A stretch of DNA of 64,000 nt from Parcubacteria group bacterium Gr01-1014_17 (GCA_007376285.1 VMFZ01000004.1:300-64299), one strand, 5' to 3'; numbered from the stretch's first letter, positions 7,183 through 54,874 are shown. Numbers and translations: made by a program. The notes: generated by a model not told the origin, from the letters alone.

Positions 7183-7297
7183 AGAATGTAAATGATACCA
7201 TACGCGCTTATTTTTCCACCACAACCCTCCTACTTTCCTAGGAATGTAGGAGGAACAGCACAACATTCAATACGCCACCCGTGTGGCGTATTACGAC

Positions 7298-7603
7298 TTA
7301 CAGTAAACGGTAGGTTACATAGTGGCCTACCTTACCCACTTGCTCCACCTTGCCCTCGCGCTCAAGTTCGTCTAAGTAGCGCACAGCGGTGCGTGGAGAT
7401 ACGCCGAGCGCGGCGCGGATTTCGGTGTTGGAGAGTTCGCGTTTATCTTGAAAAAGAGAAAGTATTTTTTGCTTGCGCGCCTGTTTTTGCGACGCTGTCT
7501 CAATCGCCGAGGCACAAATACCGACAACCTGCTCCCTCGTTCTCCTTGAGAGCAAAAGAACAATAACAACAATCCCGATGATGATTAAAATTATTTGCGT
7601 CAT
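7298..7603 (-). CDS. small membrane-anchored winged-helix DNA-binding protein; last gene of the R-M island operon
   Basis: N-terminal TM helix plus wHTH NTEIRAALGVSPRTAVRYLDELEREGKV. It lies 9 nt downstream of the res stop. Confidence 0.5.
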   Translation of the reverse strand: MTQIILIIIGIVVIVLLLSRRTREQVVGICASAIETASQKQARKQKILSLFQDKRELSNTEIRAALGVSPRTAVRYLDELEREGKVEQVGKVGHYVTYRLL

Positions 7604-12335: not shown

Positions 12336-12767
12336 TTATTTTTCAGATTCTTTAAAGTCCTCCATATAAAGACCGACAAACTTCTGTACTGCATCAACCG
12401 TTGCGTCTTTAACATGCGCATTACTCTCCGCAACCCACTTCGCAAAGTTATAGAGTTCTTGATTGCTCACCCGAAGCCATTTCTCATTCTTATACAAGAA
12501 ATATAGGAGCGTCGTAACTGCAATTCTCTTATTGCCATTCTGAAAAGGGTGATTCTTGATGAGAAAATAAAAAAGCACCGAGGACTTTTCAATAAGCCCT
12601 TGATACAGATATTTCTTGTCAAATTTCTGAAAGGGGGCGATAAGGCAACTTTCCAAAATGTTTGGATTTCGTGTTTTAAATTCCGGAATCGGCTCATTCC
12701 ATGTCATCCATTCTTTCGCCAGCGTGTGAGCGATATATTCAACTTCTGTAATAGAAATGGGTTTCAT
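12336..12767 (-). CDS. doc: Fic/Doc family toxin (death-on-curing)
   Basis: Fic motif HPFQNGNKRIAV; 143 aa. Confidence 0.85.
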   Translation of the reverse strand: MKPISITEVEYIAHTLAKEWMTWNEPIPEFKTRNPNILESCLIAPFQKFDKKYLYQGLIEKSSVLFYFLIKNHPFQNGNKRIAVTTLLYFLYKNEKWLRVSNQELYNFAKWVAESNAHVKDATVDAVQKFVGLYMEDFKESEK

Positions 12768-12769
12768 AA

Positions 12770-13039
12770 TTATTCCTTTCCAAGCAAACGAAGTGCTTCA
12801 CCATATTCTCTTATGGTTTTTGCGACAGACGCTTCAATATCGTTCTTTTTTTTGTCTGTTAATTCTCTGCCGAGTATTCGGTTGAGCTCATCGTACGCGA
12901 TAATGTAGTTCCTACCAACTTTTTGCGCTTTAATATCGCCACTTTGTATTTTATTAAATACAGCAGTTCGGCTTATACACAAGATTTTAGCCGCTTCCGT
13001 TGCAGATATATACTTTTGAGTTTTATTTTCCATAGTCAT
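12770..13039 (-). CDS. HTH (excisionase-like) DNA-binding protein, putative antitoxin partner of Doc
   Basis: ISATEAAKILCISRTAVFNKIQSGDIKAQKVGR HTH; its stop is 2 nt before the doc start. Confidence 0.55.
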   Translation of the reverse strand: MTMENKTQKYISATEAAKILCISRTAVFNKIQSGDIKAQKVGRNYIIAYDELNRILGRELTDKKKNDIEASVAKTIREYGEALRLLGKE

Positions 13040-13124: not shown

Positions 13125-13817
13125 TTAAAGCAATCCTTTTTCCTTAAAACTCAAAAACTTATTTCCAGCCACGATAATATGATCCAGCACTTCTATTCCC
13201 ATAATCTTTCCCGCTTCAACGAGCCGCTTGGTTGTCTCTATGTCTTCCTTTGACGGCTCAGTATCGCCCGATGGGTGGTTGTGGGCAAAAATTACTGACG
13301 CGGCTTTATTTTTGATTGCCTCCGCGAACACCTCGCGAGGATGAACAACACTCGCATTGAGTGAGCCGATTGATACCTCCGCTATTGAGTGGTTTCTGCT
13401 GTTGAGGGCTATGCTGTAAAAATGCTCTTTGTGGTAGTCCTTGAGTTTACTTTTCACAAGCCGACATACTTTTTCGGGGTCAGTGAGTTCTTTGTTTTTG
13501 TATGACGGAGTTTGTGTAGACAATCGCCGTCCAATCTCAAAAACCGCTTTTATTTGCGTTGCTTTTGCTAATCCAATTCCTTTGATTAAAGACAATTCCT
13601 CAATGCTTGCCTCAGCTAATTTCTGCAAACTGCCGAATTGCGATAATAGTTTTTGTGCCGTTATGGAAACCGATTCGCCGGCAATACCGCGACCCAAAAT
13701 AACCTGCAATAATTCTTGCGCCGATAGCGCTTGCTCGCCAAACTCCACCAATCGTTCGCGCGGTCGCTCTTCTTTCGGTAAATCGCGAATCGTGAATGAC
13801 TTAATCATAGAATACAA
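13125..13817 (-). CDS. radC: RadC-like JAB/MPN domain protein
   Basis: JAMM motif HNHPSGDTEPSKED and a helix-hairpin-helix N-terminus. Confidence 0.85.
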   Translation of the reverse strand: MYSMIKSFTIRDLPKEERPRERLVEFGEQALSAQELLQVILGRGIAGESVSITAQKLLSQFGSLQKLAEASIEELSLIKGIGLAKATQIKAVFEIGRRLSTQTPSYKNKELTDPEKVCRLVKSKLKDYHKEHFYSIALNSRNHSIAEVSIGSLNASVVHPREVFAEAIKNKAASVIFAHNHPSGDTEPSKEDIETTKRLVEAGKIMGIEVLDHIIVAGNKFLSFKEKGLL

Positions 13818-13884
13818 TAAATCCTAGCATTTTTTGACACATAAAAACAGCCCCGCTTCGCTCGGGCTTCGGCAGTTACAAGCC

Positions 13885-13929
13885 CCCGCATTTCTTTATA
13901 CCAGTGTTTTGCAAAACACTAGTATAGAT
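13885..13929. repeat. repeat A copy 1 (palindrome ACCAGTGTTTTGCAAAACACTAGT) at the 3' end of the ArsR-like gene
   Basis: near-identical to 14201..14247; it encodes the C-terminal ILVFCKTLV of the regulator. Confidence 0.7.
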
Positions 13930-14168
13930 TCACCGCGGGCGGTGAGCCGGTGAAGTACGCTCGGACCAGAGTTCCGTTTCATAATAAGGCCTGCAATCGC
14001 CAATTTCCGAATGTGGTCGGAAGCATTCTCGTACCCAAGTTTAAGCCGCTTGGTAATAGCGGCAACCGAGAGTTCAGGTTCTTTGTGCAGTAATTCAAGA
14101 ATCTTAATCCGATTGTGATTTGCAAAGCCGCGCACCACGCGCTCCGCTTTCCTATATTCAAAAGCCAT
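13896..14168 (-). CDS. ArsR-family HTH transcriptional regulator (paralog 1)
   Basis: ANHNRIKILELL ... AITKRLKLGYENASDHIRKLAIAGLI; start taken at MAFEYRK. Confidence 0.7.
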   Translation of the reverse strand: MAFEYRKAERVVRGFANHNRIKILELLHKEPELSVAAITKRLKLGYENASDHIRKLAIAGLIMKRNSGPSVLHRLTARGESILVFCKTLV

Positions 14169-14200
14169 ATCTATTATTATACTACCACACATCCCACGTC

Positions 14201-14247
14201 CCCGCATTTCTTTATACTAGTGTTTTGCAAAACACTAGCATAGACAT
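14201..14247. repeat. repeat A copy 2, upstream operator candidate of the ArsR-like gene
   Basis: cccgcatttctttatactagtgttttgcaaaacactagcatagac. Confidence 0.7.
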
Positions 14248-14362
14248 ATCCCATGTCACTTTTTTACAAACAAAAGCAACTGTTTTTTGTGTGGTGAAGC
14301 ATTTGACATATTGAGTTGGCTATAGTACTATCTTCTCTAGAAAATATTATCAGTGAGGTTCT

Positions 14363-14881
14363 ATGAGATTTGAAAAAACAAATAAGTTCTTCATAACTGG
14401 GTGGCATTCATTCAAACAAAACTTCGTTGTACAACGTATCGTTCTTGCAATTCTTTTGTTTGGCGCAGGATTCAACATTGGTCTTCCTCTTGTTGTGGAA
14501 GGAACGCGAATGGAATTTCTGTTCCATGTGTGGTTTATCATTGTTACTATGCTGTGCCTCGGTATTCACATTGGTTACGCGCTTCGATATCGGCCGGAGG
14601 AAAAAAATATTTTTTTGCCCTTTGTGTTTCCGGTTGAGTTTCTGGCTCCATTTTTTTTCATCGTCGGTGGGCTTGCAACAGCGCGGGTGCTTATCTACTG
14701 GACCGTGTATGCAAAGTCCTTCGGGTGGGAAACAGTACGCCGGCAAATCTACTTTGACGGAAATGTGTTCCTAATCTGCTTCATCCTTGGCACATATTGG
14801 CTTGAACTTGGGCTTGCACGCATGCGCGGCAAAAAATCGCTGCGCATATGGCCATTCATACTCAAAGCAAATAAGAACTAA
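14363..14881 (+). CDS. hypothetical polytopic membrane protein
   Basis: 172 aa with 4-5 hydrophobic helices. Confidence 0.45.
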   Translation: MRFEKTNKFFITGWHSFKQNFVVQRIVLAILLFGAGFNIGLPLVVEGTRMEFLFHVWFIIVTMLCLGIHIGYALRYRPEEKNIFLPFVFPVEFLAPFFFIVGGLATARVLIYWTVYAKSFGWETVRRQIYFDGNVFLICFILGTYWLELGLARMRGKKSLRIWPFILKANKN

Positions 14882-14890
14882 AAGCAATTC

Positions 14891-14919
14891 GGCACGGCGA
14901 GATGGTCTCGCCGTGTTTT
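14891..14919. terminator. hairpin ggcacggcgagatggtctcgccgtg followed by a T-tract
   Basis: perfect stem followed by ttttt. Confidence 0.6.
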
Positions 14920-15061
14920 TCATATTTTATTTCGGCCCGCACTTTTCACCCGACAAAAACAGCCATGCTTTGCTGAATCTACGCAGGACAAGCCGCCCAT
15001 CCGCCCGCTTTGAAACCCTCCAAAACTCTATGGAACCCTTCGCCCGAAGGGTCCCCTACAA

Positions 15062-15092
15062 AACATTCTCACTTTCTTAAGAATGTGAGAAT
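15062..15092. repeat. repeat B copy 1 (30-bp palindrome ACATTCTCACTTTCTTAAGAATGTGAGAATGT)
   Basis: three copies in the window (15062, 15682, 15990); this one overlaps the tag 3' end. Confidence 0.75.
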
Positions 15093-15670
15093 GTTTTTGT
15101 AATGTCGTTTTTACGGAAACACCGCTCCATATGGTCGTTCACCATCCCCACTGCCTGCATATGTGCATATAGCGTTGTAGGACCGAGAAATCGAAAACCG
15201 CGCGCTTTGAGGTCGTGCGCCCAGCGAATTGCCTCGTCGCTCGTCTGACGATAATCTTTGATTGTTTTAATTCTGTACTGAATTGGCGTACCGCCGACAA
15301 AACCCCACATATATTTTGAAAAATTACTAAATTCTTTCTGTATCTTCAGAAATCTTTTTGCATTGTTAATTGTCGCTTCTATTTTCGCGCGGTTGCGCAC
15401 AATACCGGCGTCGCCAAGAAGCCGCACCACATCTCGCTTTTCAAACGCTGCAATTTTCTTTGGGGAAAAATCCGCGAACATTTTTCTGAAATGCTCGCGC
15501 TTATGCAAAATCGTGCGCCAACTTAACCCCGCTTGAAAGATTTCCAATACCAAGAATTCAAAAATCTTTCGGTCTTCATAAAGCGGAACGCCCCATTCCG
15601 TGTCGTGATACTCCTTCATACGCGCATCATTCTCATCTACCCACGCGCATCGTTTTCTTTTTTCTTCCAT
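15077..15670 (-). CDS. tag: DNA-3-methyladenine glycosylase I
   Basis: EYHDTEWGVPLYEDRKIFEFLVLEIFQAGLSWRTIL is typical of Tag. Confidence 0.85.
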   Translation of the reverse strand: MEEKRKRCAWVDENDARMKEYHDTEWGVPLYEDRKIFEFLVLEIFQAGLSWRTILHKREHFRKMFADFSPKKIAAFEKRDVVRLLGDAGIVRNRAKIEATINNAKRFLKIQKEFSNFSKYMWGFVGGTPIQYRIKTIKDYRQTSDEAIRWAHDLKARGFRFLGPTTLYAHMQAVGMVNDHMERCFRKNDITKTFSHS

Positions 15671-15681
15671 ACAAGTACGAA

Positions 15682-15712
15682 ACATTCTCACATTCTTAAG
15701 AATGTGAGAATG
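15682..15712. repeat. repeat B copy 2
   Basis: aacattctcacattcttaagaatgtgagaatgtt; encodes the KTFSHS C-terminus of ArsR paralog 2. Confidence 0.75.
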
Positions 15713-15971
15713 TTTTTATGAGCTGTATCATACGGTGGCCGTACGGAGAAAGCGAGTGTGCCACTTCCCTGCCGCGATATTTCTTATCAACAAGTCCTGC
15801 ATACACGAGGCGGCGAGTATGTTCAGCAATCGTTTTCAGATTGCAGTCCAAATGCTCTGCTATGCCATCAAGCGAGACGCCCTCTGAAGTATGTATTAAG
15901 AAAAGTATCTGAAGGCGTCGATGGTTCGCGACTCCCTTAAAATGCCGTTCCAATTGTTTAGGTGTTTTCAT
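15696..15971 (-). CDS. ArsR-family HTH transcriptional regulator (paralog 2)
   Basis: ANHRRLQILFLI ... IAEHLDCNLKTIAEHTRRLVYAGLV; homologous to paralog 1. Confidence 0.7.
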   Translation of the reverse strand: MKTPKQLERHFKGVANHRRLQILFLIHTSEGVSLDGIAEHLDCNLKTIAEHTRRLVYAGLVDKKYRGREVAHSLSPYGHRMIQLIKTFSHS

Positions 15972-15989
15972 TCTTATTCATTATACTAG

Positions 15990-16020
15990 CACATTCTCAC
16001 TTTCTTAAGAAAGTGAGAAT
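15990..16020. repeat. repeat B copy 3, operator/promoter candidate between ArsR paralog 2 and typA
   Basis: acattctcactttcttaagaaagtgagaatgt. Confidence 0.7.
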
Positions 16021-16112
16021 GTTGTTATGCGGATATTCAATGTTTGCGTTCTTTTGCATTTTATCGTATTATGAATGTGAAATCGTGGCCGCGAGGCCAT
16101 TTTCATTTGTAT

Positions 16113-17918
16113 ATGCAAGAAATTAGAAACATCGCCATTATCGCCCATGTTGACCACGGCAAAACCACGCTCACTGACGCGCTTCTCGCGCAATCGGGTG
16201 TTGGGAAAGCCGGCGCGTCTATGGATTCAAACGCGCTCGAGCTTGAGCGCGGCATTACGATTTACGCGAAAAATACTTCTATTCCCTACAAAGGCGGAAA
16301 AATAAATATCGTAGACACGCCCGGGCACGCAGACTTCGGAAGCGAGGTGGAGCGCGTCTTGCGCTCCATTGATTGCGTGCTCCTTGTCGTAGATGCACAA
16401 GAAGGACCGATGCCTCAGACGCGCTTTGTGCTTAAGAAATCGTTGGAACTCGGGCTTAAGCCGATTGTCGTTATAAACAAAATGGACAAGACGGCGGCAG
16501 ACGCACAGGTCTTGGAACTTTTTTTTGAACTTGGCGCTACGGACGCGCAGGCAAACTTCCCTATCGTGTACGCCATCGGCCGCGAAGGAGTTGCGAAAAA
16601 GAATTTGACCGATGAATCCAAAGACCTCTCGCCACTTCTTGATACCATTCTGGAACATGTGCCGAATGTCTCTTTGCCGGAACTTGCGGCGAAGCCGCTT
16701 CGCCTCCAACCATTCAATCTCGCGTACGACAACTTTCTCGGCAGAATGGCAGTCGCGCGCGTGTATGAAGGTGTTGTAAAACCCGGAATGAATGTGTTTA
16801 TAAAAAATCAAAAAGGCGAAATACGAAACGGAAAAATCATTAAGCTTTTCACATGGAACGGAATGGAAAAAAACGAGGCGGCAGAGGTAGTGGCTGGAGA
16901 TATCGCGCTCGTTGCTGGGCTTACCAACATTGAAATCGGCGAGACCGTGTCTGCTGAAAAAGATGCGGATGTGCTCCCCACCATTTCAATTGACGAGCCC
17001 ACGATTGAACTGCAATTTCTCGTCAACAATTCGCCGTTCGGCGGCCGCGACGGAAAGTTCGTGACTTCGCGCCAAATTCGCGACTACTTGGAGCGCGAGC
17101 TTGAAGTGAATGTGGGGCTCAAGGTGGACTTCTCTTCAAATGAATTCTTCAAGGTACTCGGGCGCGGCGAACTCCACATTGCGATACTTCTAGAAAATAT
17201 GCGCCGCGCGGGCTACGAAGTGCAAGTGTCACAACCGCAAGTTATTATCCGCGAAGAAATTGTAAGTAAGGAACCACTTGTGGTGAGCAAAGTCGAACCA
17301 TTTGAAGAAGTAATTATAGACACGCCGCTTGCGTACCAAGGTGTTGTTATTGAGAAGCTTGGCCGCCGCGCGTTTATCATCAAAAACATACACGAGCACA
17401 ACGGCTCAGTTCGTCTCACACTGGAAGGCCCGACGCGCGGGCTCTTGGGCTATCGCAACCAGTTTGTGGTAGACACGCGCGGCGATGGAATTATGTCGTC
17501 GCGCGTCGTCGGCTTCAAGCCGTACGCGGGCGAAATTTCAAAACGCGCAGTTGGTTCTATGCTCTCAATGGCAACCGGAAAAGCGCTCGGCTACGCGCTC
17601 TGGGGTTTCCAAGAACGCGGCATACTTTATATAGGACCCGGAACGGAAGTGTATGAAGGAATGGTCATAGGCAATACTTCAAAAGGCGAGCAGATGTCGG
17701 TAAACCCGACCAAAGGCAAACAACTCTCCAATGTCCGCGCTTCTGGCACCGACGAAGCGATAGACCTTGTACCGCCATACGAGATTACAATTGAACGCGG
17801 ACTGGAAGTAATGGCGGAAGACGAATATCTGGAAATTACTCCAAAAAGCGTGCGCCTACGGAAAAAATACCTTACCGAAATAGATCGCAACCGCGCGAAG
17901 CGCAAGGAGGGGAAATAA
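16113..17918 (+). CDS. typA: translational GTPase TypA/BipA
   Basis: [25 protein letters not shown]; ~600 aa EF-G-like. Confidence 0.9.
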
Positions 17919-20719: not shown

Positions 20720-21514
20720 ATGGAACCCCAAGCGCAACAGAGTAATTTCTTGACGATTCCGCTCGCGATTGTGGTCGCGGGCATTGTGATTGCAGGCGCA
20801 ATATTTTTTGGCGGGAGAAGCGGCGGCACGGCAACCAACAATCAACCGACAGACACGCAACCTGCGGCAGTTGCAGTTGCGCTTCGAGAAGTAAGTAGCG
20901 GAGACCACATCCGCGGCAATCCTGATGCAAAGATTATGCTCGTTGAATATTCCGACACCGAGTGCCCATTCTGCAAAGCATTTCACGGCACGATGCAAAA
21001 ATTGATGGACGAGTACGGAAAAAACGGCTCGCTTGCGTGGGTGTATCGACACTTCCCACTTGACCAACTCCACCCGGTGAAGGCGCGCAAAGAAGCCGAA
21101 GCAAGTGAGTGTGCCGGGGAGCTCGGCGGCAACATTGCATTCTGGTCGTACATTGACCGCATTTTTGAAATCACACCGTCAAACAACGGACTAGACCTTG
21201 CCGAACTTCCGAAAATCGCTACATTCCTAAAACTTGATGAGAAAAAATTCAATGAGTGCGTTGCAAGTGGAAAGTATGCGGAAAAAATTGAAAAGGATTA
21301 TCAAGATGGCGTCTCCGCTGGCGCATCTGGAACACCATTTAGCGTACTTGTACTGAAAAACGCAATCACTAAAACACAGGAAGCCGCGCTCGCGCCGTTT
21401 ATCGCGCAATTCCGCGGCGGCGTTGCCATTTCTTCCGACAAAACCAAAATCACCCTAAACGGTGCGCTTCCCTATAATGCCGTAAAAATGATTCTTGATG
21501 TGTTGCTTAAATAG
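20720..21514 (+). CDS. DsbA-like thiol:disulfide oxidoreductase, membrane-anchored
   Basis: N-terminal TM, thioredoxin-fold CPFC active site. Confidence 0.75.
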   Translation: MEPQAQQSNFLTIPLAIVVAGIVIAGAIFFGGRSGGTATNNQPTDTQPAAVAVALREVSSGDHIRGNPDAKIMLVEYSDTECPFCKAFHGTMQKLMDEYGKNGSLAWVYRHFPLDQLHPVKARKEAEASECAGELGGNIAFWSYIDRIFEITPSNNGLDLAELPKIATFLKLDEKKFNECVASGKYAEKIEKDYQDGVSAGASGTPFSVLVLKNAITKTQEAALAPFIAQFRGGVAISSDKTKITLNGALPYNAVKMILDVLLK

Positions 21515-24428
21515 ACTGGCATAACCGACACCAGTCGCAATCTTTTTTGCTACAGCCGTTTTTGAGAAACGACAAGTTCAAAATTTGCGAGGCGGCTTCT
21601 ATAATTTGCTGTTTGAGCGAGCTCACTTCCCAATCCGATATTTCAAACGCCTCGCGGTGGTAGCGGCCGCTTTTGTCGAGCTTGATAAAATCAATGACGC
21701 CAGTTCTCATATTCCAATTTTTTCCGCCGCTTCGGCGGGTCGCCGATGAGGCGACTTGTATTTCGTCCAAAAGCAATTTGTAGAACACGAGTTGGCGGTA
21801 ATAATTGCCGTCGCTTGCTTTCGTTTTCCCCAAAATCTCGTTCCGCGTCCGCGGCTTCCCTGTTTTATAATCCACCACTGCTACGCTACCGTTCTGCAGC
21901 ATTTCCACTTTGTCCAAACTGCCCGTAAGTTCCAATTTTTCTTTCCCAACGGTGAGAAAAATGCCAGCGACGCGATACTCGTTCCACGAAACGCGCGAAA
22001 ACTGCCGTGAAGAGAGATACCCTTTCAGTTCACGCTTCCCTTCCGCCAAGTACACTTTGAAATCGCGTTCCGAAATATGCGTGCGCCGGAGTGTGTTTTC
22101 AAACACGCGAAATATCTCGGTAAAAGGTTTGTCGGCGTCGCGGGCGCGAGCGGCGAAGTGCGCTGCGAGCGCGGTATGTATCGCCGAACCGTACAGTTCC
22201 GCGCCAGATTGCGCGCGCGGGACGCGTACGAGGTTCAAGAAAAAATATTTGAGCGGACATTCCAAAAAATTATTGAGGTGCGTTACGGCAAAGCCTTGTC
22301 CCAAAAACAAGGCGTTCATGTATTTTCTTTCTTTTAAACATCCCCCGCCCTTCGGGCACCCCCTTCCAAGGGGGATTGCAGAAATCTCACCTTGAGGGGA
22401 GTACCCGAGCGGAGCGAGTGGGAGGGATGTAATTCGTGTATGTTCCCGCGCCGCCTCCTCCATCTCAAAAATAAAACGGCTGGGCAGAACAGCGCGGCCA
22501 TCGGTATTTTTCGCATGCCAACTCACCGATACTTCTTTGCGCGCGCGTGTTAGCGCGACATAAAATAAACGCCGCTCGTCGTGCGTATCGTTTTCCGCAT
22601 CATCATCCACATATATAGGAAGCTCAAAAAGCGCGCGGCTACGCTTCCCGCCCCATTTGCCGTCTTGCGCGAAAGCGATAAACACATAATCAAACTCCAA
22701 CCCTTTTGCTTTGTGCGCCGTACATACTAAAACGCCGTCGGGCGCTTCCACCGAGGAAACAATACCGATACCGTGCGCCTCCGCCCGTTCCAAGCGCGCG
22801 AGAAAGTCCGCGAGCTTCGCGCGCTTATCGCGCTCAGCGAGGCGCTTCGCGCTTTCAAGAAACGCCGCGTAATGCGCGAGCGCTTCTGGCGCGTCAGGCC
22901 TGCCGAGCGCGATTTCCAAAAATCCGGACTCGTGCGCAATGCGTTCAAAGCCCTCCATGAGGGGTTCATTGTGCGCAATCGTCTGCCATGCAAAAAGCTT
23001 TTTCTGAAATGCGGCGAGTTCTTTTCCGTATTTTACGATACGGAGAATGAGCAGGCCTCCTTCACGCACGCGCACCGCTTCCATTACAGAAAGCAATGGC
23101 AATTTCAGAAAGTCATAAAACAAAACCGGTGCCAGAGACGCATCATCGGCTGGATTCAAAATCGCGACAAACAATTTGCGTAGCGCGTCAATGCGCACCG
23201 ACTGGAGCGCATCCGCATTCCCCCGCCGCGCCGCGGGAATGCCGCGCGCGTGGAGTGCTTGCTCCACCTTCTCTGCATCTTTGTTCTCACGCGCAAGCAC
23301 CGCAATCTCTCGCGGCACGACACCATTTTTAATCAACGCTTCAATCCTACCTATAATCCACGCGAGTTCGCTCGCTTCACTCTGCGCTTCAACGACGCGA
23401 ATGGCGAGTGGCGCGTGCCCTGCACGCGCCGCGAGTCTCTGGTGAACATTCCCATCTCCCGCCGCGAATTTTTCCATAAGCGAATGTGCTGCAGAAAGCA
23501 CCAGCGGCTGTGAGCGATAATTGTCGGTAAGCGCAATCGCGCGCGCGCTTGGAAATCGCTTTTTGAAATACAGAAAGTTTTCGAGCGACGCACCCTGAAA
23601 ACGGAAAATGGCTTGCTTCTCGTCGCCAACGATAAAGAGGTTCGGTGAAGGGTCGTAATCGCATAAAAGTTCCAGTAAGCGGTTCTGGCTCCGGTTCGCA
23701 TCTTGGTGTTCATCTGCAAGTACATATTGATGCTCCTCTTGCAAACGCAATTTGAAATTGGGAGATTGCTCAAGCGCGCGGACAGCTTCTATTATCATAT
23801 CTTCAAAATCGTACAGGCGGCGCTTCACGAGTTCTTTTTCGTACGCGCTGTAGAGTGTCGCGAACTCGCGGCTTCGTTTCCACTTATCGCTTTTTGTATC
23901 AGCACTTCGCGTCAAAAGTTTTAGAAACTCCACAGGAGAGACATTTTCGCGCTTCAATTGTTTAATCGCGTCAATCACAGGCAGAACATAGTAAGCAGGA
24001 GAATTTTTCGGACGCAAAAGTAAAGAGCGTATGCGGTTAATTAAGGTCTCTATAATACGCACCTGTTCCAAATCCTCCATATGTTCAGCGCCTACGATGC
24101 GCGAGAATTCTTCCGGATAGCGCTTAATCAAATCATTCGCAAAACTGTGGAAGGTGTGTATCCGAACTTCGTATGCCCGCGGGCCGATGATTTCCAAAAG
24201 CTTCGTGCGCATCGCCTTCACTCCCGCTTCAGTAAATGTGAGCGCCAAAATCGCGTCCGCAGGCGTGTCGGTCTGTCGTAGAATGTTCGCAATGCGGAGC
24301 GTTAGAATTGAGGTCTTGCCAGTCCCAGGACCTGCAACGACCACCACTGGCCCGTCAATTGCATCTACCGCCTCGCGTTGTGCTCGGTTGAGTTTTTTAT
24401 AGAGGTCGTTAAATATCGTGTCGATCAT
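21507..24428 (-). CDS. UvrD/PcrA-family helicase with C-terminal nuclease-like domain (AddA-like), carrying in-frame hairpin insertions
   Basis: VVVAGPGTGKTS Walker A and C-terminal Cys cluster CDWCRLC. The start is probably MIDTIF; the track ORF extends into a palindrome. Confidence 0.8.
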   Translation of the reverse strand: MIDTIFNDLYKKLNRAQREAVDAIDGPVVVVAGPGTGKTSILTLRIANILRQTDTPADAILALTFTEAGVKAMRTKLLEIIGPRAYEVRIHTFHSFANDLIKRYPEEFSRIVGAEHMEDLEQVRIIETLINRIRSLLLRPKNSPAYYVLPVIDAIKQLKRENVSPVEFLKLLTRSADTKSDKWKRSREFATLYSAYEKELVKRRLYDFEDMIIEAVRALEQSPNFKLRLQEEHQYVLADEHQDANRSQNRLLELLCDYDPSPNLFIVGDEKQAIFRFQGASLENFLYFKKRFPSARAIALTDNYRSQPLVLSAAHSLMEKFAAGDGNVHQRLAARAGHAPLAIRVVEAQSEASELAWIIGRIEALIKNGVVPREIAVLARENKDAEKVEQALHARGIPAARRGNADALQSVRIDALRKLFVAILNPADDASLAPVLFYDFLKLPLLSVMEAVRVREGGLLILRIVKYGKELAAFQKKLFAWQTIAHNEPLMEGFERIAHESGFLEIALGRPDAPEALAHYAAFLESAKRLAERDKRAKLADFLARLERAEAHGIGIVSSVEAPDGVLVCTAHKAKGLEFDYVFIAFAQDGKWGGKRSRALFELPIYVDDDAENDTHDERRLFYVALTRARKEVSVSWHAKNTDGRAVLPSRFIFEMEEAAREHTRITSLPLAPLGYSPQGEISAIPLGRGCPKGGGCLKERKYMNALFLGQGFAVTHLNNFLECPLKYFFLNLVRVPRAQSGAELYGSAIHTALAAHFAARARDADKPFTEIFRVFENTLRRTHISERDFKVYLAEGKRELKGYLSSRQFSRVSWNEYRVAGIFLTVGKEKLELTGSLDKVEMLQNGSVAVVDYKTGKPRTRNEILGKTKASDGNYYRQLVFYKLLLDEIQVASSATRRSGGKNWNMRTGVIDFIKLDKSGRYHREAFEISDWEVSSLKQQIIEAASQILNLSFLKNGCSKKDCDWCRLCQSI

Positions 24429-24457
24429 TGGGGTAGTATACGCGCTTTTTTCCCACG

Positions 24458-24492
24458 ACACCCGATGTCTGCAATTTAGACATCAGGTGTCG
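24458..24492. repeat. P element (35-bp palindrome CACC[AC]GATGTCTGCAATTTAGACATC[TA]GGTG)
   Basis: 14-bp arms around a gcaattt loop; further copies are listed below. Confidence 0.8.
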
Positions 24493-24571
24493 TTGGTACA
24501 AGTATTTTGCAAAATACTGAAATACACTATCTCTGGCGACCGCTAGAGATAATGTAGGTATTCGTCTAACT

Positions 24572-24605
24572 ATTCCAATTAACTGCTATAGCAAGTAGTT
24601 GGAAT
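24572..24605. repeat. palindrome C copy 1 (TTCCAATTAACTGCTATAGCAAGTAGTTGGAA), upstream of the helicase
   Basis: related to the perfect 28-bp palindrome at 59283..59316 upstream of clpB. Confidence 0.6.
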
Positions 24606-24879
24606 AGTGACAAAAATCACGGAGGCACCAAATATCTAAATTGAAGACATCTGGCACGAAAGAAAAAGCGGAGGAATGTGCTTTTGCTGAACGGCGAGGA
24701 GCCGAGCGGGCATGGCTTCCGAGTCTGCGAGGAAGAGCGAGGCGAGCGGATAAGGAAAATTTCCTCGCAGGGGAAATAAATGCCTGTCCCCGCCTCATCG
24801 GCGGAGGCGCTATGCATAATCCCCTCCACTACGGTCGGGGTGAAAAGGCAATTATTAGTAATTTTCTACATTTAATTTT

Positions 24880-25994: not shown

Positions 25995-26029
25995 GACACC
26001 AGATGTCTGCAATTTAGACATCTGGTGTC
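25995..26029. repeat. P element copy
   Basis: gacaccagatgtctgcaatttagacatctggtgtc immediately after the rpsA stop. Confidence 0.8.
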
Positions 26030-26430: not shown

Positions 26431-26463
26431 ACACCCGATGTCTAAATTGCAGACATCGGGTGT
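26431..26463. repeat. P element copy (inverted loop orientation)
   Basis: acacccgatgtctaaattgcagacatcgggtgt. Confidence 0.8.
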
Positions 26464-29537: not shown

Positions 29538-30658
29538 AAGTGCTCATTATGGAGCAGGGCGTTCCTGTGCCGCATGTTTTGGGTTGCGGCTCTGCGGAAA
29601 GCGGAGGCGTACATCAAGGGTACATAGAGCATCCTGAAGAAACCGCGAATGCCGTGCGCGAGGCACTTTCTGTAGCGGCAAAAGCCGCGGGGGTAATGCC
29701 GCGGCGCGCCACAGTCGGAGCTGGTGGCATTGGGCTATCTTCAGTCACCGCAAACGGCGCTATTGTGGTTTCGCGCGCAGATGCTGAAATTACCGAACTT
29801 GACGCAAGCAAAGCAGTTGAGACGAGCCGCATTTCAATTCCGACATCTCTTCTTCAAAATAGGCGCATAATCCATACGACACCGCTCCAATACAAAGTTG
29901 ATGGAAAATCCGTGCCTACCTCCCCAGTCGGTTTTAAGGGCGCGAAGCTTGAAGTGCGTACATTTTTCGTTACCTGCATGGAACAACATCTTGAGAATCT
30001 TTTTGAAGCAGTGGAAACCGCGGGTATTGCCATAGAAGATGTGGTTGCAACACCGCTCGCGGCAAGTACCGCAACAATAACCCGCGCGCAAAAAGCCGCA
30101 GGAGTCGTGCTTGCGAACATCGGCTCAGAAACCGTGTCTATCGCAGTGTTTGAAAACGGATTGCCTGTTTCAATTGAAGTGTTTCCAGTAGGAAGCGTTA
30201 ATGTAACAAACGACATTGCGCTCGGGCTACGCATTCCTTTGGAAGAAGCCGAAAGCGTGAAGCGCGGGGCGATTATCGGCGCTTCGTTTCCGCAGAAAAA
30301 ACTTGATGAGATTATTGCGGCGCGGCTCACAGATATTTTTGAACTGATTGAAGCGCATCTTAAAAAAATGGGGCGAAGCGGTCTTCTCCCCGCAGGGGTC
30401 GTGCTCACCGGCGGCGGCTCGGCGCTTGCAACAATTGATGACCTTGCAAAAGCGGCGCTTAGGTTACCTGCGCGCATTGCGTCTGCAATTACCGGAGAAA
30501 GCGGAAAGAGCCAAATAAAAGACGCGAGTTGGTCCGTTGCCTACGGGCTTGCAGCAATGGGGCTCCAAGACGCGGCGCGCGGGCTTCCTTTGGGCATTGA
30601 AACCGCGCGCCGCGCCAAGCACACAGTGGTGGGGTGGTTTAAGCAATTTTTGCCGTAA
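29489..30658 (+). CDS. ftsA: cell division protein FtsA
   Basis: actin-like ISCGIDIGTDRVKVLIME; 389 aa. Confidence 0.9.
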   Translation: MAQKISCGIDIGTDRVKVLIMEQGVPVPHVLGCGSAESGGVHQGYIEHPEETANAVREALSVAAKAAGVMPRRATVGAGGIGLSSVTANGAIVVSRADAEITELDASKAVETSRISIPTSLLQNRRIIHTTPLQYKVDGKSVPTSPVGFKGAKLEVRTFFVTCMEQHLENLFEAVETAGIAIEDVVATPLAASTATITRAQKAAGVVLANIGSETVSIAVFENGLPVSIEVFPVGSVNVTNDIALGLRIPLEEAESVKRGAIIGASFPQKKLDEIIAARLTDIFELIEAHLKKMGRSGLLPAGVVLTGGGSALATIDDLAKAALRLPARIASAITGESGKSQIKDASWSVAYGLAAMGLQDAARGLPLGIETARRAKHTVVGWFKQFLP

Positions 30659-30838
30659 GAGCCGCTCGCATAGCTCCCGTGTCCGAACACGCATACCCGC
30701 CGCCAGCGCGGCGGGTTGCTCTGCTCGGCTCGGCGTTGTCAAGAGCCCTCGCTTCGCTCGGGTCGTTGACAAACCGTGCCGCCTCGCCTCCGCAAGGTCG
30801 CGGACACGGGACTATGCTCGCTTTTGTTTTCATTTCCG
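30659..30838. repeat. MITE-like element R copy 1 (~180 bp with ~22-bp terminal inverted repeats GCTCGCATAGCTCCCGTGTCCG / CGGACACGGGACTATGCTCGC)
   Basis: starts at the ftsA stop; ~95% identical to 33041..33228. Confidence 0.75.
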
Positions 30839-30873
30839 GCACCAGATGTCTGCAATTTAGACATCTGGTGCCT
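30839..30873. repeat. P element copy
   Basis: ggcaccagatgtctgcaatttagacatctggtgcc. Confidence 0.8.
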
Positions 30874-31026
30874 CGGGAGACACCCTGCCCGCTCGGCTCC
30901 TCGCCCGCCCGTACCGAATGGTACATTCGGGCGGGCCGTTCCGCAAAAGCACATTCCTCACTCTGTTTTTTTCACCATCTGTACATACAGACATTTTGCA
31001 AAATGTTTGTATAAAACAGGCAAAAG

Positions 31027-31884: not shown

Positions 31885-33039
31885 ATGCCTTTAATTACAC
31901 CGGATGTAGAAGCGTTTGCGCGGATAAAAGTGTTCGGTATCGGCGGCTCGGGCAAAAATGCCTTGAACCATATGATCAACTCCAAGGTCAAAGGAGTTGA
32001 GTTTGTCGCAATCAACACAGACGCGCAAGACCTGCATAACACGCTCGCCAAAAAGAAAATCCATATTGGAAAGAATGTTACGCGCGGGTTGGGCGCCGGT
32101 ATGAATCCTGAAGTGGGCAAGCGCGCCGTTGAAGAAACGAAAGAAGAAATACAGGAAGCGACGAAAGGCGCGGATATGGTGTTCATTGCTGGCGGGCTCG
32201 GCGGCGGCACTTTCAGCGGCGCCGCGCCCATGGTAGCCAAAACCGCGAAAGAACTCGGTGCGCTTACTGTCGCGGTAACGACTAAGCCGTTCTTTTTTGA
32301 GGGCTCGCAGAGAATGAAAATTGCGGAGCAGTGGCTTGAAGAACTCCGTAAGAGCGTTGACGCAATTATTATCATTCCGAATGACCGCTTGCTCGCTTCC
32401 ATCACCAAAGACACGACCGCCAAAGCCGCGTTCGGCACCTGCGACGAAGTGCTCCGGCAAGCCGTGGAAGGAATTTCTGACTTGATTACTACGCCGGGTA
32501 TTATCAACTTGGACTTTGCAGATATTCGTGCGATTTTGGAAAATGCTGGCTCGGCGCTTATGGGCATAGGGAGCGCAACCGGCGACAAACGCGCCGAGGA
32601 AGCCGCGAAAGCCGCCATCAATTCCCCGCTTCTTGAAGTGTCCATCAACGGCGCGAAGGGCGTGCTCTTCTCTATTGCGGGCGGCGACGACCTCACGATG
32701 TTTGAAATACAAGAGGCCGCAAAGATTATTACGGAATCAATAGACCCGAATGCCAAAGTGATTTTCGGCACCATCCGCGATGAAAAGCTAAAGAAAGGCG
32801 AAATTAAAATTACAGTCATTGCATCTGGCTTTCCAGAAAGCGCACTGCCGCGCAAATCGCTTTTTACCGGACTTATGAATAGCGGCGCAGACGACGACAA
32901 GCGCGGGAAGCAGAACACGGTTTCTGCATCTGCTTCCATTATTACCAAAGAAACAAAGTCGGACGAGAAAAAAGGGTCCGCTAGCGAAGACGACGACTGG
33001 GGTTCTGTGCCTGCGTTTCTAAGACGGGCGAAGAAGTAA
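31885..33039 (+). CDS. ftsZ: cell division protein FtsZ
   Basis: GGGTGSG-like GLGGGTFSGAAP, NTDAQDL, tubulin signature. Confidence 0.95.
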   Translation: MPLITPDVEAFARIKVFGIGGSGKNALNHMINSKVKGVEFVAINTDAQDLHNTLAKKKIHIGKNVTRGLGAGMNPEVGKRAVEETKEEIQEATKGADMVFIAGGLGGGTFSGAAPMVAKTAKELGALTVAVTTKPFFFEGSQRMKIAEQWLEELRKSVDAIIIIPNDRLLASITKDTTAKAAFGTCDEVLRQAVEGISDLITTPGIINLDFADIRAILENAGSALMGIGSATGDKRAEEAAKAAINSPLLEVSINGAKGVLFSIAGGDDLTMFEIQEAAKIITESIDPNAKVIFGTIRDEKLKKGEIKITVIASGFPESALPRKSLFTGLMNSGADDDKRGKQNTVSASASIITKETKSDEKKGSASEDDDWGSVPAFLRRAKK

Positions 33040-33040
33040 A

Positions 33041-33228
33041 GGGCGCTCGCATAGCTCCCGTGTCCGAACACGCATACCCGCCGCCAGCGCGGCGAGTTGC
33101 TCTGCTCGGCTCGGCGTTGTCAAGAGCCCTCGTCCGCCTAAGGTGGACTCGGGTCGTTGACAAACCGTGCCGCCTCGCCTCCGCAAGGTCGCGGACACGG
33201 GACTATGCTCGCTTGCGTTTTTCTTTCT
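33041..33228. repeat. MITE-like element R copy 2
   Basis: same TIRs; carries a 16-bp extra apical segment relative to copy 1. Confidence 0.75.
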
Positions 33229-33263
33229 GGCACCAGATGTCTGCAATTTAGACATCTGGTGCC
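33229..33263. repeat. P element copy
   Basis: ggcaccagatgtctgcaatttagacatctggtgcc. Confidence 0.8.
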
Positions 33264-33334
33264 TCTCTATCCAAGTATTTTGCAAAATATTTGTAGGGAC
33301 TAATTCGTGAGAATTAGAGAATAGACAAAGAAAA

Positions 33335-49170: not shown

Positions 49171-50073
49171 ATGAATCTTGAATCTAAGATTCTAGTCATT
49201 GTTGGACCGACTGCGAGCGGGAAAAGCGCGCTCGCGGTTACGCTCGCGCGCCGATTCAGAGGCGAAGTGATTTCCGCCGATTCACGACAAGTGTATCGTG
49301 GGCTCGATGTCGGTACAGGAAAAATCACAAAAAAAGAAATGCGCGGCGTCCACCACCATTTGCTTGATATCGCGAACCCGAAAAAGCAATTCACGGTTGC
49401 AGAATATAAGAAGCTCGCCCGAGAAAAGATCTCCCAGATTCAATCGCGCAACAAAATTCCCATCATCTGCGGTGGCACTGGTCTTTATATTGATGCGCTT
49501 CTTGGAAATATCGCCATCCCAGAAGTACCTCCAAACCTCGCACTCCGCAAAAAACTAGAGAGAAAGACGGCCCCTGAATTGTTCGCTCTGCTCCAAATGT
49601 TCGACCCACAACGCGCAAAAACCATTGACCAGCACAACCCGCGACGACTTATTCGCGCGATTGAAATTATAAAAGCCATTGGTTCTGTCACTCCATCACA
49701 ACATACCAACATTCTGCAGAATATGAGAATGATTGGCCTCATACTCCCACCAGCAGAACTCAAAAAGAAAATATCTAGGCGCTTATTCGTGAGAATTAGA
49801 GAATATAAGATGATACAAGAAGTCCGAGAGTTGCACCGGAAAGGATTGTCGTGGAAACGGATGGAATCGCTAGGGCTTGAGTACCGCTACCTTTCCCGCT
49901 ATTTACGCGGCTTCCTTACTAAAACAGAAATGATTGAGAAACTCAAAACCGAAATCTGGCGCTACGCAAAACGGCAGATGGTGTGGTTCAAGCGGAATAA
50001 AGAAATAAAATGGTTTACACCAAAAGAACAAAGAAAAATATTTTCTGCAGTTCAAGTGTTTTTGTGTCAATAA
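49171..50073 (+). CDS. miaA: tRNA dimethylallyltransferase
   Basis: ILVIVGPTASGKSALAV, ISADSRQVYRGLDVGTGK. Confidence 0.9.
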   Translation: MNLESKILVIVGPTASGKSALAVTLARRFRGEVISADSRQVYRGLDVGTGKITKKEMRGVHHHLLDIANPKKQFTVAEYKKLAREKISQIQSRNKIPIICGGTGLYIDALLGNIAIPEVPPNLALRKKLERKTAPELFALLQMFDPQRAKTIDQHNPRRLIRAIEIIKAIGSVTPSQHTNILQNMRMIGLILPPAELKKKISRRLFVRIREYKMIQEVRELHRKGLSWKRMESLGLEYRYLSRYLRGFLTKTEMIEKLKTEIWRYAKRQMVWFKRNKEIKWFTPKEQRKIFSAVQVFLCQ

Positions 50074-54783: not shown

Positions 54784-54829
54784 GACAGAAAGATAATAGC
54801 AGATTTTTTCCAAATAGGGAACACAAAAA

Positions 54830-54860
54830 CACCAGATGTCTGAATTGCAGACATCTGGCG
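54830..54860. repeat. P element variant
   Basis: caccagatgtctgaattgcagacatctggcg followed by ttttttt. Confidence 0.75.
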
Positions 54861-54874
54861 CTTTTTTTGAACAA

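Follow-up and report, generated by a model that had tools for sequence, protein, structure and literature searches.

Two families of ArsR-fold regulators in Patescibacteria, each bracketed by predicted palindromic operators at the promoter and in its own 3' coding end

Operators that lie inside or beyond a coding region can assist a promoter operator by roadblock or looping, as known for PurR, with sites downstream of the purR start, for GalR, with OI, and for DeoR. To our knowledge, these intragenic sites do not lie at a stop codon and are not conserved with synonymous fixation across a phylum-level group. Here we analyse a 64-kb window, the whole stretch of 64,000 nucleotides to which all coordinates refer, from Parcubacteria group bacterium Gr01-1014_17, a member of the candidate phyla radiation (CPR, or Patescibacteria). 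In this window two paralogous genes for small winged-helix regulators, TF1 and TF2, are each bracketed by copies of a long palindrome of their own, palindrome A for TF1 and palindrome B for TF2. The closest documented precedent is LacI, which binds O3 in the 3' end of lacI and blocks RNA polymerase there, giving truncated transcripts, SsrA tagging and self-limited synthesis (PMC3711431). As with O3, the predicted operator lies in the 3' coding end of the regulator's own gene (13897-13926 for TF1 and 15680-15715 for TF2, and at 80 of 80 and 78 of 80 orthologous loci, respectively), with a second operator at a promoter a short distance away. The two cases also differ: LacI is tetrameric and of another fold, and O3 serves the lac promoter downstream of it, while the promoter of lacI itself lacks an operator. 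The arrangement described here, by contrast, pairs promoter and 3' end symmetrically, is centred on the stop codon and has been conserved across a whole bacterial group in both paralogous families; a roadblock is proposed for it by analogy.

We propose, with a probability that we put at roughly 60%, that each regulator has a cognate pair of operators, in which the promoter copy would serve autoregulation and the 3' copy would act as an auxiliary operator. Such a layout suggests an unusual form of self-control. Its components are already known, namely an autoregulator of the ArsR fold and an auxiliary operator within a coding region. The combination of a stop-codon operator, synonymous fixation, occurrence in two paralogous families within a major bacterial radiation and a helix a5 shaped by the site was not found described, and a full-text literature search (CPR regulators, palindromic operators and the motif strings) returned nothing relevant. 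Almost nothing is known about gene regulation in Patescibacteria, most members of which have never been cultured; the analysis yields two regulator families with predicted operators, promoter geometry and local target genes.

In fold, in small size and in the inverted repeat at their own promoter, TF1 and TF2 resemble the ArsR/SmtB repressors (SmtB, CzrA and CadC, and the non-metal regulators HlyU, BigR/SqrR, PagR and SdpR). Unlike these, they lack canonical metal sites, have perfect palindromes of 30-38 bp and carry a second operator in the gene end that encodes their own helix a5. An earlier note, made from the sequence of the window, had described them as two paralogous ArsR-family regulators, and this holds: they share 33% identity over 84 aa (E = 2e-16), and profile searches, a structural model and Foldseek point to the ArsR/SmtB fold. 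Among Pfam families, TF1 scores 30.5 against HTH_20 (cut-off 27) and 22.4 against HTH_5 (cut-off 22), and TF2 scores 27.8 against MarR (cut-off 24.6) and, below the cut-off, 21.7 against HTH_5; on the NCBIfam ArsR/SmtB model NF033788 both (48.5 and 39.1) stay under the cut-off of 55. A PDB profile search with TF1 relatives returned CadC (E = 9e-11), followed by HlyU, CzrA and SmtB. The AlphaFold model of TF1 (predicted local distance difference test score, pLDDT, 92.5) has the canonical order a1-a2-a3-aR-wing-a5, with helices at residues 5-15, 18-29, 35-42, 46-58 and 77-89 and strands at 62-67 and 70-75, and its top Foldseek matches are CadC, SmtB, CzrA and HlyU at template-modelling scores of 0.81-0.87, CadC and CzrA both reaching 0.87. 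Helix a5 (residues 77-89) is the part of TF1 encoded by the predicted operator. The metal-ligand motifs (CXC in a3; D/H-x-H-x10-H-x2-E/H in a5) are absent from both family alignments, and the sole conserved cysteine of TF1 is C86 of FCK, encoded by the invariant operator core TTT-TGC-AAA. A weak profile match (E = 2.9e-6) links the regulators to AspA, an ArsR-like protein of the Sulfolobus plasmid pNOB8, which is likewise a small winged-helix protein with a palindrome upstream of its own gene, to which it binds; unlike AspA, which is part of a partition system, they have no ParA/ParB partners, and the similarity stops at the shared fold. Together, sequence and model identify TF1 and TF2 as putative paralogous DNA-binding regulators with the ArsR/SmtB fold, in two old and large families, highly conserved and specific to Patescibacteria.

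The palindromes and the layout they form

The core of palindrome A (AGTGTTTTGCAAAACACT) occurs exactly at 13903-13920 and 14219-14236, with 0.02 matches expected by chance. Each copy is a 30-bp palindrome (TATACyAGTGTTTTG-CAAAACACTAGyATA, the hyphen marking the centre) and sits within a 50-nt direct repeat found by repeat search, whose two copies are 92% identical and 316 nt apart. TF1 ends in ESILVFCKTLV, of which ILVFCKTLV and the stop codon are encoded by the 3' copy. The string of palindrome B lies at 15065-15092, 15684-15711 and 15993-16020 (copies B1, B2 and B3) with 1, 0 and 2 mismatches and a chance expectation of 0.00; over 42 nt the copies are 83-95% identical to the reference copy, at spacings of 619 and 309 nt. 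KTFSHS followed by a stop is the C-terminus of both TF2, inside B2, and Tag, the product of the neighbouring tag gene, inside B1. On most of these points the earlier note had read the locus correctly: it had placed repeat A upstream of TF1 and at the 3' end encoding ILVFCKTLV, had B2 encode the KTFSHS of TF2, had the tag reading frame run into B1, and had a third B copy in the promoter region shared with typA, where we find it between the ATG of TF2 (15971) and that of the divergent typA (16113), about 107 nt upstream of the latter. The palindrome thus does double as a coding end, as had been suggested. The note had also counted three 30-bp B palindromes; the three copies stand, but the length does not, the quoted string having 28 nt and the true palindromes 36-38 bp.

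Across Taylor-, Vogel-, Wolfe-, Kaiser-, Nomura- and Adlerbacteria, orthologues of TF1 have identities of 59-96%; for those of TF2, in Parcubacteria lineages and WWE3, the range is 62-79%. We sampled 80 loci from species-representative genomes for family 1 (TF1) and 80 metagenome loci for family 2 (TF2). In family 1, a palindrome of about 30 bp centred on TTTTG-CAAAA lies inside the 3' end at all 80 loci, with its centre 245-257 nt into the gene, and 78 of them have another copy 26-105 nt ahead of the start codon. In family 2, the palindrome ACATTC(T/C)(C/A)ACATTCT..AGAATGT..GAATGT is centred on the stop codon at 78 of the 80 loci, and an upstream copy is also present at 72. The C-terminal residues encoded by the palindrome are conserved accordingly, as SILVFCKxL(Q/E/V) in family 1 and IKTF(S/Q)HS in family 2. 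A TF2-like sub-family has a variant palindrome (ACATCCTTACAAACT..AGAATGTAAGGATGT), again centred on its own stop codon; this was noted at 2578-2886 of locus L114, at about 250 of L096 and at 3601-3640 of L081, where the variant follows an open reading frame (ORF) for a zinc-ribbon protein.

This layout of one regulator and two palindromes recurs in about 150 genomes, whatever the neighbouring genes, which agrees with the modular units proposed earlier. Clustering of flanking proteins by BLAST over the 160 loci gave no cluster larger than 5 adjacent to the regulators. Pfam searches of 66 genes beside B sites returned a mixed accessory set, and the accessory genes found next to the regulators include nucleases, Tag, RadC, NUDIX proteins and transporters. 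A conserved synteny or regulon was rejected on these grounds, since neighbour clusters do not exceed 5 and B-adjacent genes are mixed. Given that the neighbouring genes are not conserved, the conserved unit is palindrome-gene-palindrome. This unit also disposes of the explanation that the palindromes are generic repeats, of the repetitive extragenic palindromic (REP) or miniature inverted-repeat transposable element (MITE) kind, unrelated to these genes. A truly dispersed palindrome family (GGCACCAGATGTCTGCAATTTAGACATCTGGTGCC, 7 copies) does exist in the window, so that such an explanation has some footing. However, within the 64 kb, palindrome B is confined to the TF2-tag locus except for one weak intragenic match, full copies of A number two, both at TF1, with three degenerate relatives, and each palindrome type tracks its own regulator family through 150 or more loci. 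The earlier note had named dispersal as generic genome-wide repeats as the outcome that would speak against it; A and B are instead tied to their own regulators, and we find the repeat explanation scarcely credible.

The layout appears specific to the two families, given that three other genes of similar type do not show it: the window has one further winged-helix gene, its third (7298..7603 on the minus strand), which is not bracketed, and a 3' palindrome is missing from two ordinary ArsR-like genes found in the flanking sequence of L081 and L026. Relative to the protein alignment, the positions of the palindromes in family 1 and family 2 are about 19 nt apart, so the bracketing may have been reached twice independently, or may have drifted.

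Selection on the nucleotides of the 3' copy

Codon usage within the 3' palindrome departs from that elsewhere in the same genes. In family 1, Phe is TTT in 80 of 80 cases inside the palindrome against 59% elsewhere, Lys is AAA in 92% against 52%, Leu is CTA/CTG in 94% against 19%, Glu is GAA in 32 of 32 against 47%, and Ile is ATC in 0 of 70 against 30%. Family 2 behaves in the same way, with TTC in 65 of 68, ACA in 59 of 60 and TCT/TCA in 63 of 63 cases, against 28%, 34% and 35%. In several family 2 genes a TAA replaces the Ser/Gln codon, so that the protein ends at KTF and the palindrome continues untranslated. Changes in the arms of family 1 palindromes are mirrored even though the encoded residue changes, as in GTG...CAC (V..T), GTC...GAC (V..R), GCT...AGC (A..K) and GCA...TGC (A..M), an example being AFCKML encoded by GCATTTTGCAAAATGC; position 7 alone shows 11 double changes. 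The 5' and 3' copies share 26.2 of 30 positions within one genome, against 23.8 (sd 0.18) in shuffled genome pairs, indicating that the two copies evolve together. Mutual information between recognition residues and operator positions was dominated by this 5'/3' concordance and by phylogeny, and was not used as evidence.

The 3' palindrome could in principle act as RNA, as a terminator, a 3'-end stabiliser or an RNase III site, with the promoter copy being a separate matter. The folding energies are compatible with this (-14.5 kcal/mol for A and -21.4 kcal/mol for B, with z-scores of -5 to -8), and after B1 come another GC hairpin and UUUU. However, an RNA hairpin would tolerate G-U but not A-C pairs, and arm mismatches of the two types are equally common (G.T against A.C: 77 against 73 and 92 against 85 in family 1, 48 against 49 and 34 against 38 in family 2), so neither family shows an excess of G-U, whichever position of the site is considered, and mismatches of other kinds are more frequent still; the symmetry is therefore read on DNA. 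In addition, stem position 6 is unpaired in 62 of the 80 family 1 3' copies, and the T-runs belong to the palindrome itself, none extending beyond it. The central 10 nt of the family 1 palindrome (TTTTGCAAAA) are invariant, which a hairpin loop does not require and which fits recognition by a protein better. The upstream copy conserves the same sequence, and at the TF2 promoter it lies upstream of the -10 box, so that it is not transcribed from that promoter. Taken together, the comparisons argue that the 3' copy is under selection on its DNA sequence, not on an RNA hairpin, and we regard a purely RNA-based role as distinctly unlikely. The suggestion in the earlier note that the operator doubles as a terminator gains no support either, given the lack of G-U bias in the arms and the T-runs that are part of the palindrome. 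Since selection on DNA keeps the 3' copy, the C-terminal residues of the protein would be dictated by the palindrome. The sites thereby offer a natural case of a sequence that is both protein-coding and, by prediction, protein-binding, with its codons fixed and the C-terminal helix shaped.

Promoter geometry and a proposed role for the 3' copy

A promoter scan at TF2 identifies a sigma-70-type promoter, predicted to be leaderless (TTAAGA, a 17-nt spacer and TATAAT; 10 of 12 positions matching), whose -35 hexamer (16008..16003) is the centre of B3. Among family 1 loci, good -10 boxes are concentrated at sharp offsets of +18/19 and +31/32, counted from the middle of the 5' palindrome, and are separated from the following ATG by 6-10 nt, so near to it that the mRNAs would be leaderless or nearly so. 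In most TF1 orthologues the predicted operator covers the -35 zone, either abutting or overlapping it, which is the classical position of a repressor.

We suggest that each regulator recognises its own long palindrome as a dimer or a pair of dimers. Bound at the promoter copy, it would bring about autoregulation, most likely repression. Bound at the 3' copy, it could halt RNA polymerase at the gene end, as LacI does at O3, or could cooperate with the promoter copy across about 300 bp, and either way the 3' copy would add another level of feedback. We favour an auxiliary operator of the blocking or looping kind because LacI-O3 is the closest documented precedent. A downstream gene, here tag, would be placed under the same regulator via the 3' copy, which would gate read-through. 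The ATG of tag follows the centre of B2 by 27 nt and no convincing promoter of its own was found, so that tag is probably read through from the TF2 promoter across B2, and co-transcribed with TF2. If correct, this arrangement would broaden the LacI-O3 roadblock idea, based on a single example in E. coli, into a design principle that is conserved.

Alternatively, the 3' copy might be just the promoter operator of the next gene, squeezed into the regulator ORF by genome compactness. The next gene is co-directional at 57 of 75 loci in family 1 and 59 of 68 in family 2, often starting within 60 nt, and other genes have additional B sites 20-100 nt ahead of them. Of 76 family 2 3' copies, 34 have a -10-like box after them, compared with 12-16 in controls. 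Yet the 3' palindrome is equally intact whatever lies downstream, be it a co-directional gene close by, a distant gene or a convergent one: family 1 averages 12.3 paired positions with a convergent next gene and 12.1 with one more than 140 nt away, against 12.1, and the corresponding means of family 2 are 14.3 and 14.1, against 13.75. This argues that the site is not merely the operator of the next gene. Moreover, -10 boxes after the family 1 3' copy are at background level (23 of 78 against 15 of 78) with no preferred offset, and the downstream genes are not conserved. The 3' copy of TF1 itself is followed first by a short GC hairpin that has a T-run and next by radC, and no -10 box stands in register. 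As a full account of the 3' copy, an operator role for the next gene therefore strikes us as improbable. The hairpin after TF1 (about 13841-13868, with T5) was considered as an intrinsic terminator and rejected, being uncalled by the scan and of no significant folding; it is a candidate at most.

Several points weigh against an auxiliary operator. The excess of -10-like boxes after family 2 3' copies means that selection on these copies may partly reflect an operator role for the next gene. The 5' A copy of TF1, an outlier in its family, is centred about 46 nt upstream of TATAAT, roughly at -60 from the transcription start, and this predicted position leaves the core promoter unoccluded and would also suit an activator. 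Strict looping is not favoured by the spacing of the family 1 copies, which ranges over 283-340 bp and shows no periodicity of 10-11 bp (Rayleigh p = 0.26-0.65); over about 300 bp, strict phasing is not required. Members of the ArsR family are as a rule plain dimers, and we know of no demonstration of a roadblock of sufficient strength in this family. The evidence throughout is comparative sequence analysis.

Gene turnover, the locus and other palindromes of the window

Gene cassettes bounded by short palindromic sites are known from integrons (attC) and from the pdif modules of Acinetobacter plasmids. The present palindromes resemble these in flanking single genes with sites of about 30 bp (imperfect there) and in the varying content between sites among close relatives. 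Unlike them, they are perfect, have no asymmetric core, track a DNA-binding regulator and keep fixed promoter offsets, and no integrase, Xer or other recombinase was seen among the ORFs around the two regulators, at 12.3-18 kb, no genome-wide recombinase search having been made.

Locus L081 is a close relative of the window (90% amino-acid identity for typA, 94% for radC and 94% for Fic) and has the order typA, B, TF2, B, zinc-ribbon ORF, B-variant palindrome, radC. Nucleotide synteny between the two ends exactly where B2 has its outer edge (15680) and is restored from 13851 on, so that tag, B1, a membrane-protein gene and the whole TF1 module fall in a variable segment. Elsewhere, a gene of about 470 bp lies between two A sites in L014 where L006 (93% nucleotide identity) has a single site, the point where L117 and L120, at 99.8% identity, diverge is about 25 nt away from a B site, and between the window and L161 (TF1 96% identical) nucleotide homology runs exactly from palindrome to palindrome. 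A 36-nt repeat of 72% identity occurs at 13827-13862 and 14939-14974, with related sequence at 3640-3700 of L081. What lies just upstream of radC (GCTGTTTTTATG...AAAAATG) reappears as a degenerate copy after tag and B1, flanking the variable segment, so that a duplicated junction borders the block made up of TF1 and the membrane-protein gene.

These comparisons lend some weight to the idea that the palindromes are recombination junctions, that the regulators and their neighbours are exchangeable cassettes and that the bracketing is a footprint of integration or excision, as does the mixed accessory set beside B sites. On the other hand, the regulators have no relatives in viral contigs and keep the same locus in the informative pairs, in which it is the genes beside the palindromes that change; any repeated operator can be expected to give rise to deletions and duplications between its 30-bp copies; and regulation alone explains the synonymous constraint and the fixed promoter geometry. 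Nor does tag travel with its palindrome: among the 120 closest Tag homologues the KTFSHS tail is found in the Tag of the window and absent from the other 119, so that tag and palindrome are not a travelling unit, and a cassette of this kind was rejected. A phage or mobile-element origin was rejected as well, the regulators being absent from viral contigs and PADLOC giving generic winged-helix similarity alone. In sum, recombination as the origin of the bracketing is unlikely, and the tiny mobile units envisaged in the earlier note are not borne out, with no recombinase among the surrounding ORFs, no viral relatives and regulators that are locus-stable in close relatives.

The turnover itself appears to fit cassette-like exchange and ordinary repeat-mediated indels equally well. 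A combined possibility, which we consider rather unlikely, is that the predicted operators double as gene-exchange junctions, forming an integrase-independent cassette hotspot owned by the regulator in the ultra-small genomes of CPR bacteria. If so, a gene landing or recombining at the stop-codon copy would become bracketed by operators and fall automatically under that regulator, and the varied accessory genes beside highly conserved regulators would be accounted for. Palindromes that also mark gene turnover would bear on how very small genomes gain and control accessory genes.

The features of the locus are collected in Table 1. Along the minus strand their order is typA (divergent), B3, TF2, B2, tag, B1, a GC-rich hairpin, the membrane-protein gene (on the opposite strand), the 5' copy of A, TF1, the 3' copy of A and radC.

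Table 1. Coordinates of the TF1 and TF2 modules and of the genes around them
Feature	Position	Strand	Basis
TF1, ArsR/SmtB-fold winged-helix regulator, 90 aa, paralogue 1	13896..14168	-	ORF, Pfam, AlphaFold, Foldseek
TF2, winged-helix regulator, 91 aa, paralogue 2	15696..15971	-	ORF, similarity to TF1, Pfam
Palindrome A, 3' copy, in the last 10 codons and stop of TF1	13897..13926		
Palindrome A, 5' copy, intergenic, upstream of TF1	14213..14242		
Direct repeat of 50 nt, downstream copy: palindrome A plus 18-nt flank (AAGAAATGCGGGG, gene strand)	13879..13928		
Direct repeat of 50 nt, upstream copy	14195..14244		
TATAAT, -10 box of TF1, 7 nt before ATG, implying a leaderless mRNA	14176..14181	-	Read from sequence
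TATAAT, -10 box of TF2, 8 nt before ATG	15980..15985	-	Promoter scan
Palindrome B, copy 1 (B1), on the tag stop codon; no co-directional gene after it	15060..15097		
Palindrome B, copy 2 (B2), centred on the TF2 stop codon	15680..15715		
Palindrome B, copy 3 (B3), predicted TF2 promoter operator	15988..16025		
tag, DNA-3-methyladenine glycosylase I	15077..15670	-	Pfam Adenine_glyco, E = 3.6e-74
GC-rich hairpin directly after B1 (GGGGACCCTTCGGGCGAAGGGTTCC), candidate terminator of the TF2-tag unit	15029..15058	-	
Membrane protein, 172 aa, no Pfam family, divergent from TF1	14363..14881	+	
radC, downstream of TF1	13125..13808	-	
typA/bipA, divergent from TF2, ATG at 16113	16113..17918	+	

Among the ORFs at 12.3-18 kb, Pfam matches were obtained for Fic, HTH_17, RadC, TF1, Tag, TF2 and TypA; the membrane protein could not be assigned to any family, and its gene has a promoter of its own (TTGACA-17-TACTAT at 14303-14331). 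Directly downstream of radC lies a pair of Fic/DOC and HTH_17 (excisionase-type) genes (12336-13039, minus strand), arranged alike in L081; such a set is typical of small genomic islands. On the typA side, a B half-site (TTATGAATGTGA) is found at 16069-16080, near the likely typA promoter, and a short GC hairpin (GTGGCCGCGAGGCCAT then TTTCATTT) at 16085-16100, just before the typA ATG. At the gathering threshold, Rfam matched tRNAs alone in the whole window and nothing at 13-16 kb.

The third winged-helix gene encodes a protein of 101 aa with an N-terminal hydrophobic segment, possibly membrane-spanning, and HTH_24/HTH_11 matches. It is followed by a hairpin and then by a single 28-bp palindrome, CCTCCTACTTTCCTAGGAATGTAGGAGG (7226-7253), in the promoter of the next gene.

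The weak match to palindrome B (ATACCAACATTCTGCAGAATATGAGAAT, 49703-49730) lies inside an ORF of 300 aa and is probably due to chance. The three degenerate relatives of A (24501-24518, 30985-31012 and 33274-33291) have the TTTTGCAAAA core with different arms and might serve TF1 as weak sites, or else belong to a related regulator; two of them directly adjoin copies of the dispersed palindrome GGCACCAGATGTCTGCAATTTAGACATCTGGTGCC. The seven copies of the latter (24455-24493, 25995-26029, 26431-26463, 30838-30872, 33229-33263, 44335-44375 and 54825-54865) include copies some 20-60 nt upstream of tRNA-Phe, tRNA-Tyr and a duplicated RNA candidate, and the family resembles a motif associated with promoters, or else another regulator's operator. 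An element of about 220 nt occurs twice at 96% identity (30655-30874 and 33036-33265, minus strand). The RNA of its minus strand has a predicted multi-stem structure (-103 kcal/mol, z = -7.0) that a long stem closes, and it matches no Rfam family, making it a candidate structured non-coding RNA in two copies. Finally, four different palindromes are stacked within 180 nt at 24455-24608, upstream of a UvrD/AddA-like helicase-nuclease gene (973 aa, 21507..24428, minus strand), and one of them, CTATTCCAAyTAmyTGCTATAGCAAGTAGTTGGAAkAG, is found again at 59274-59317.

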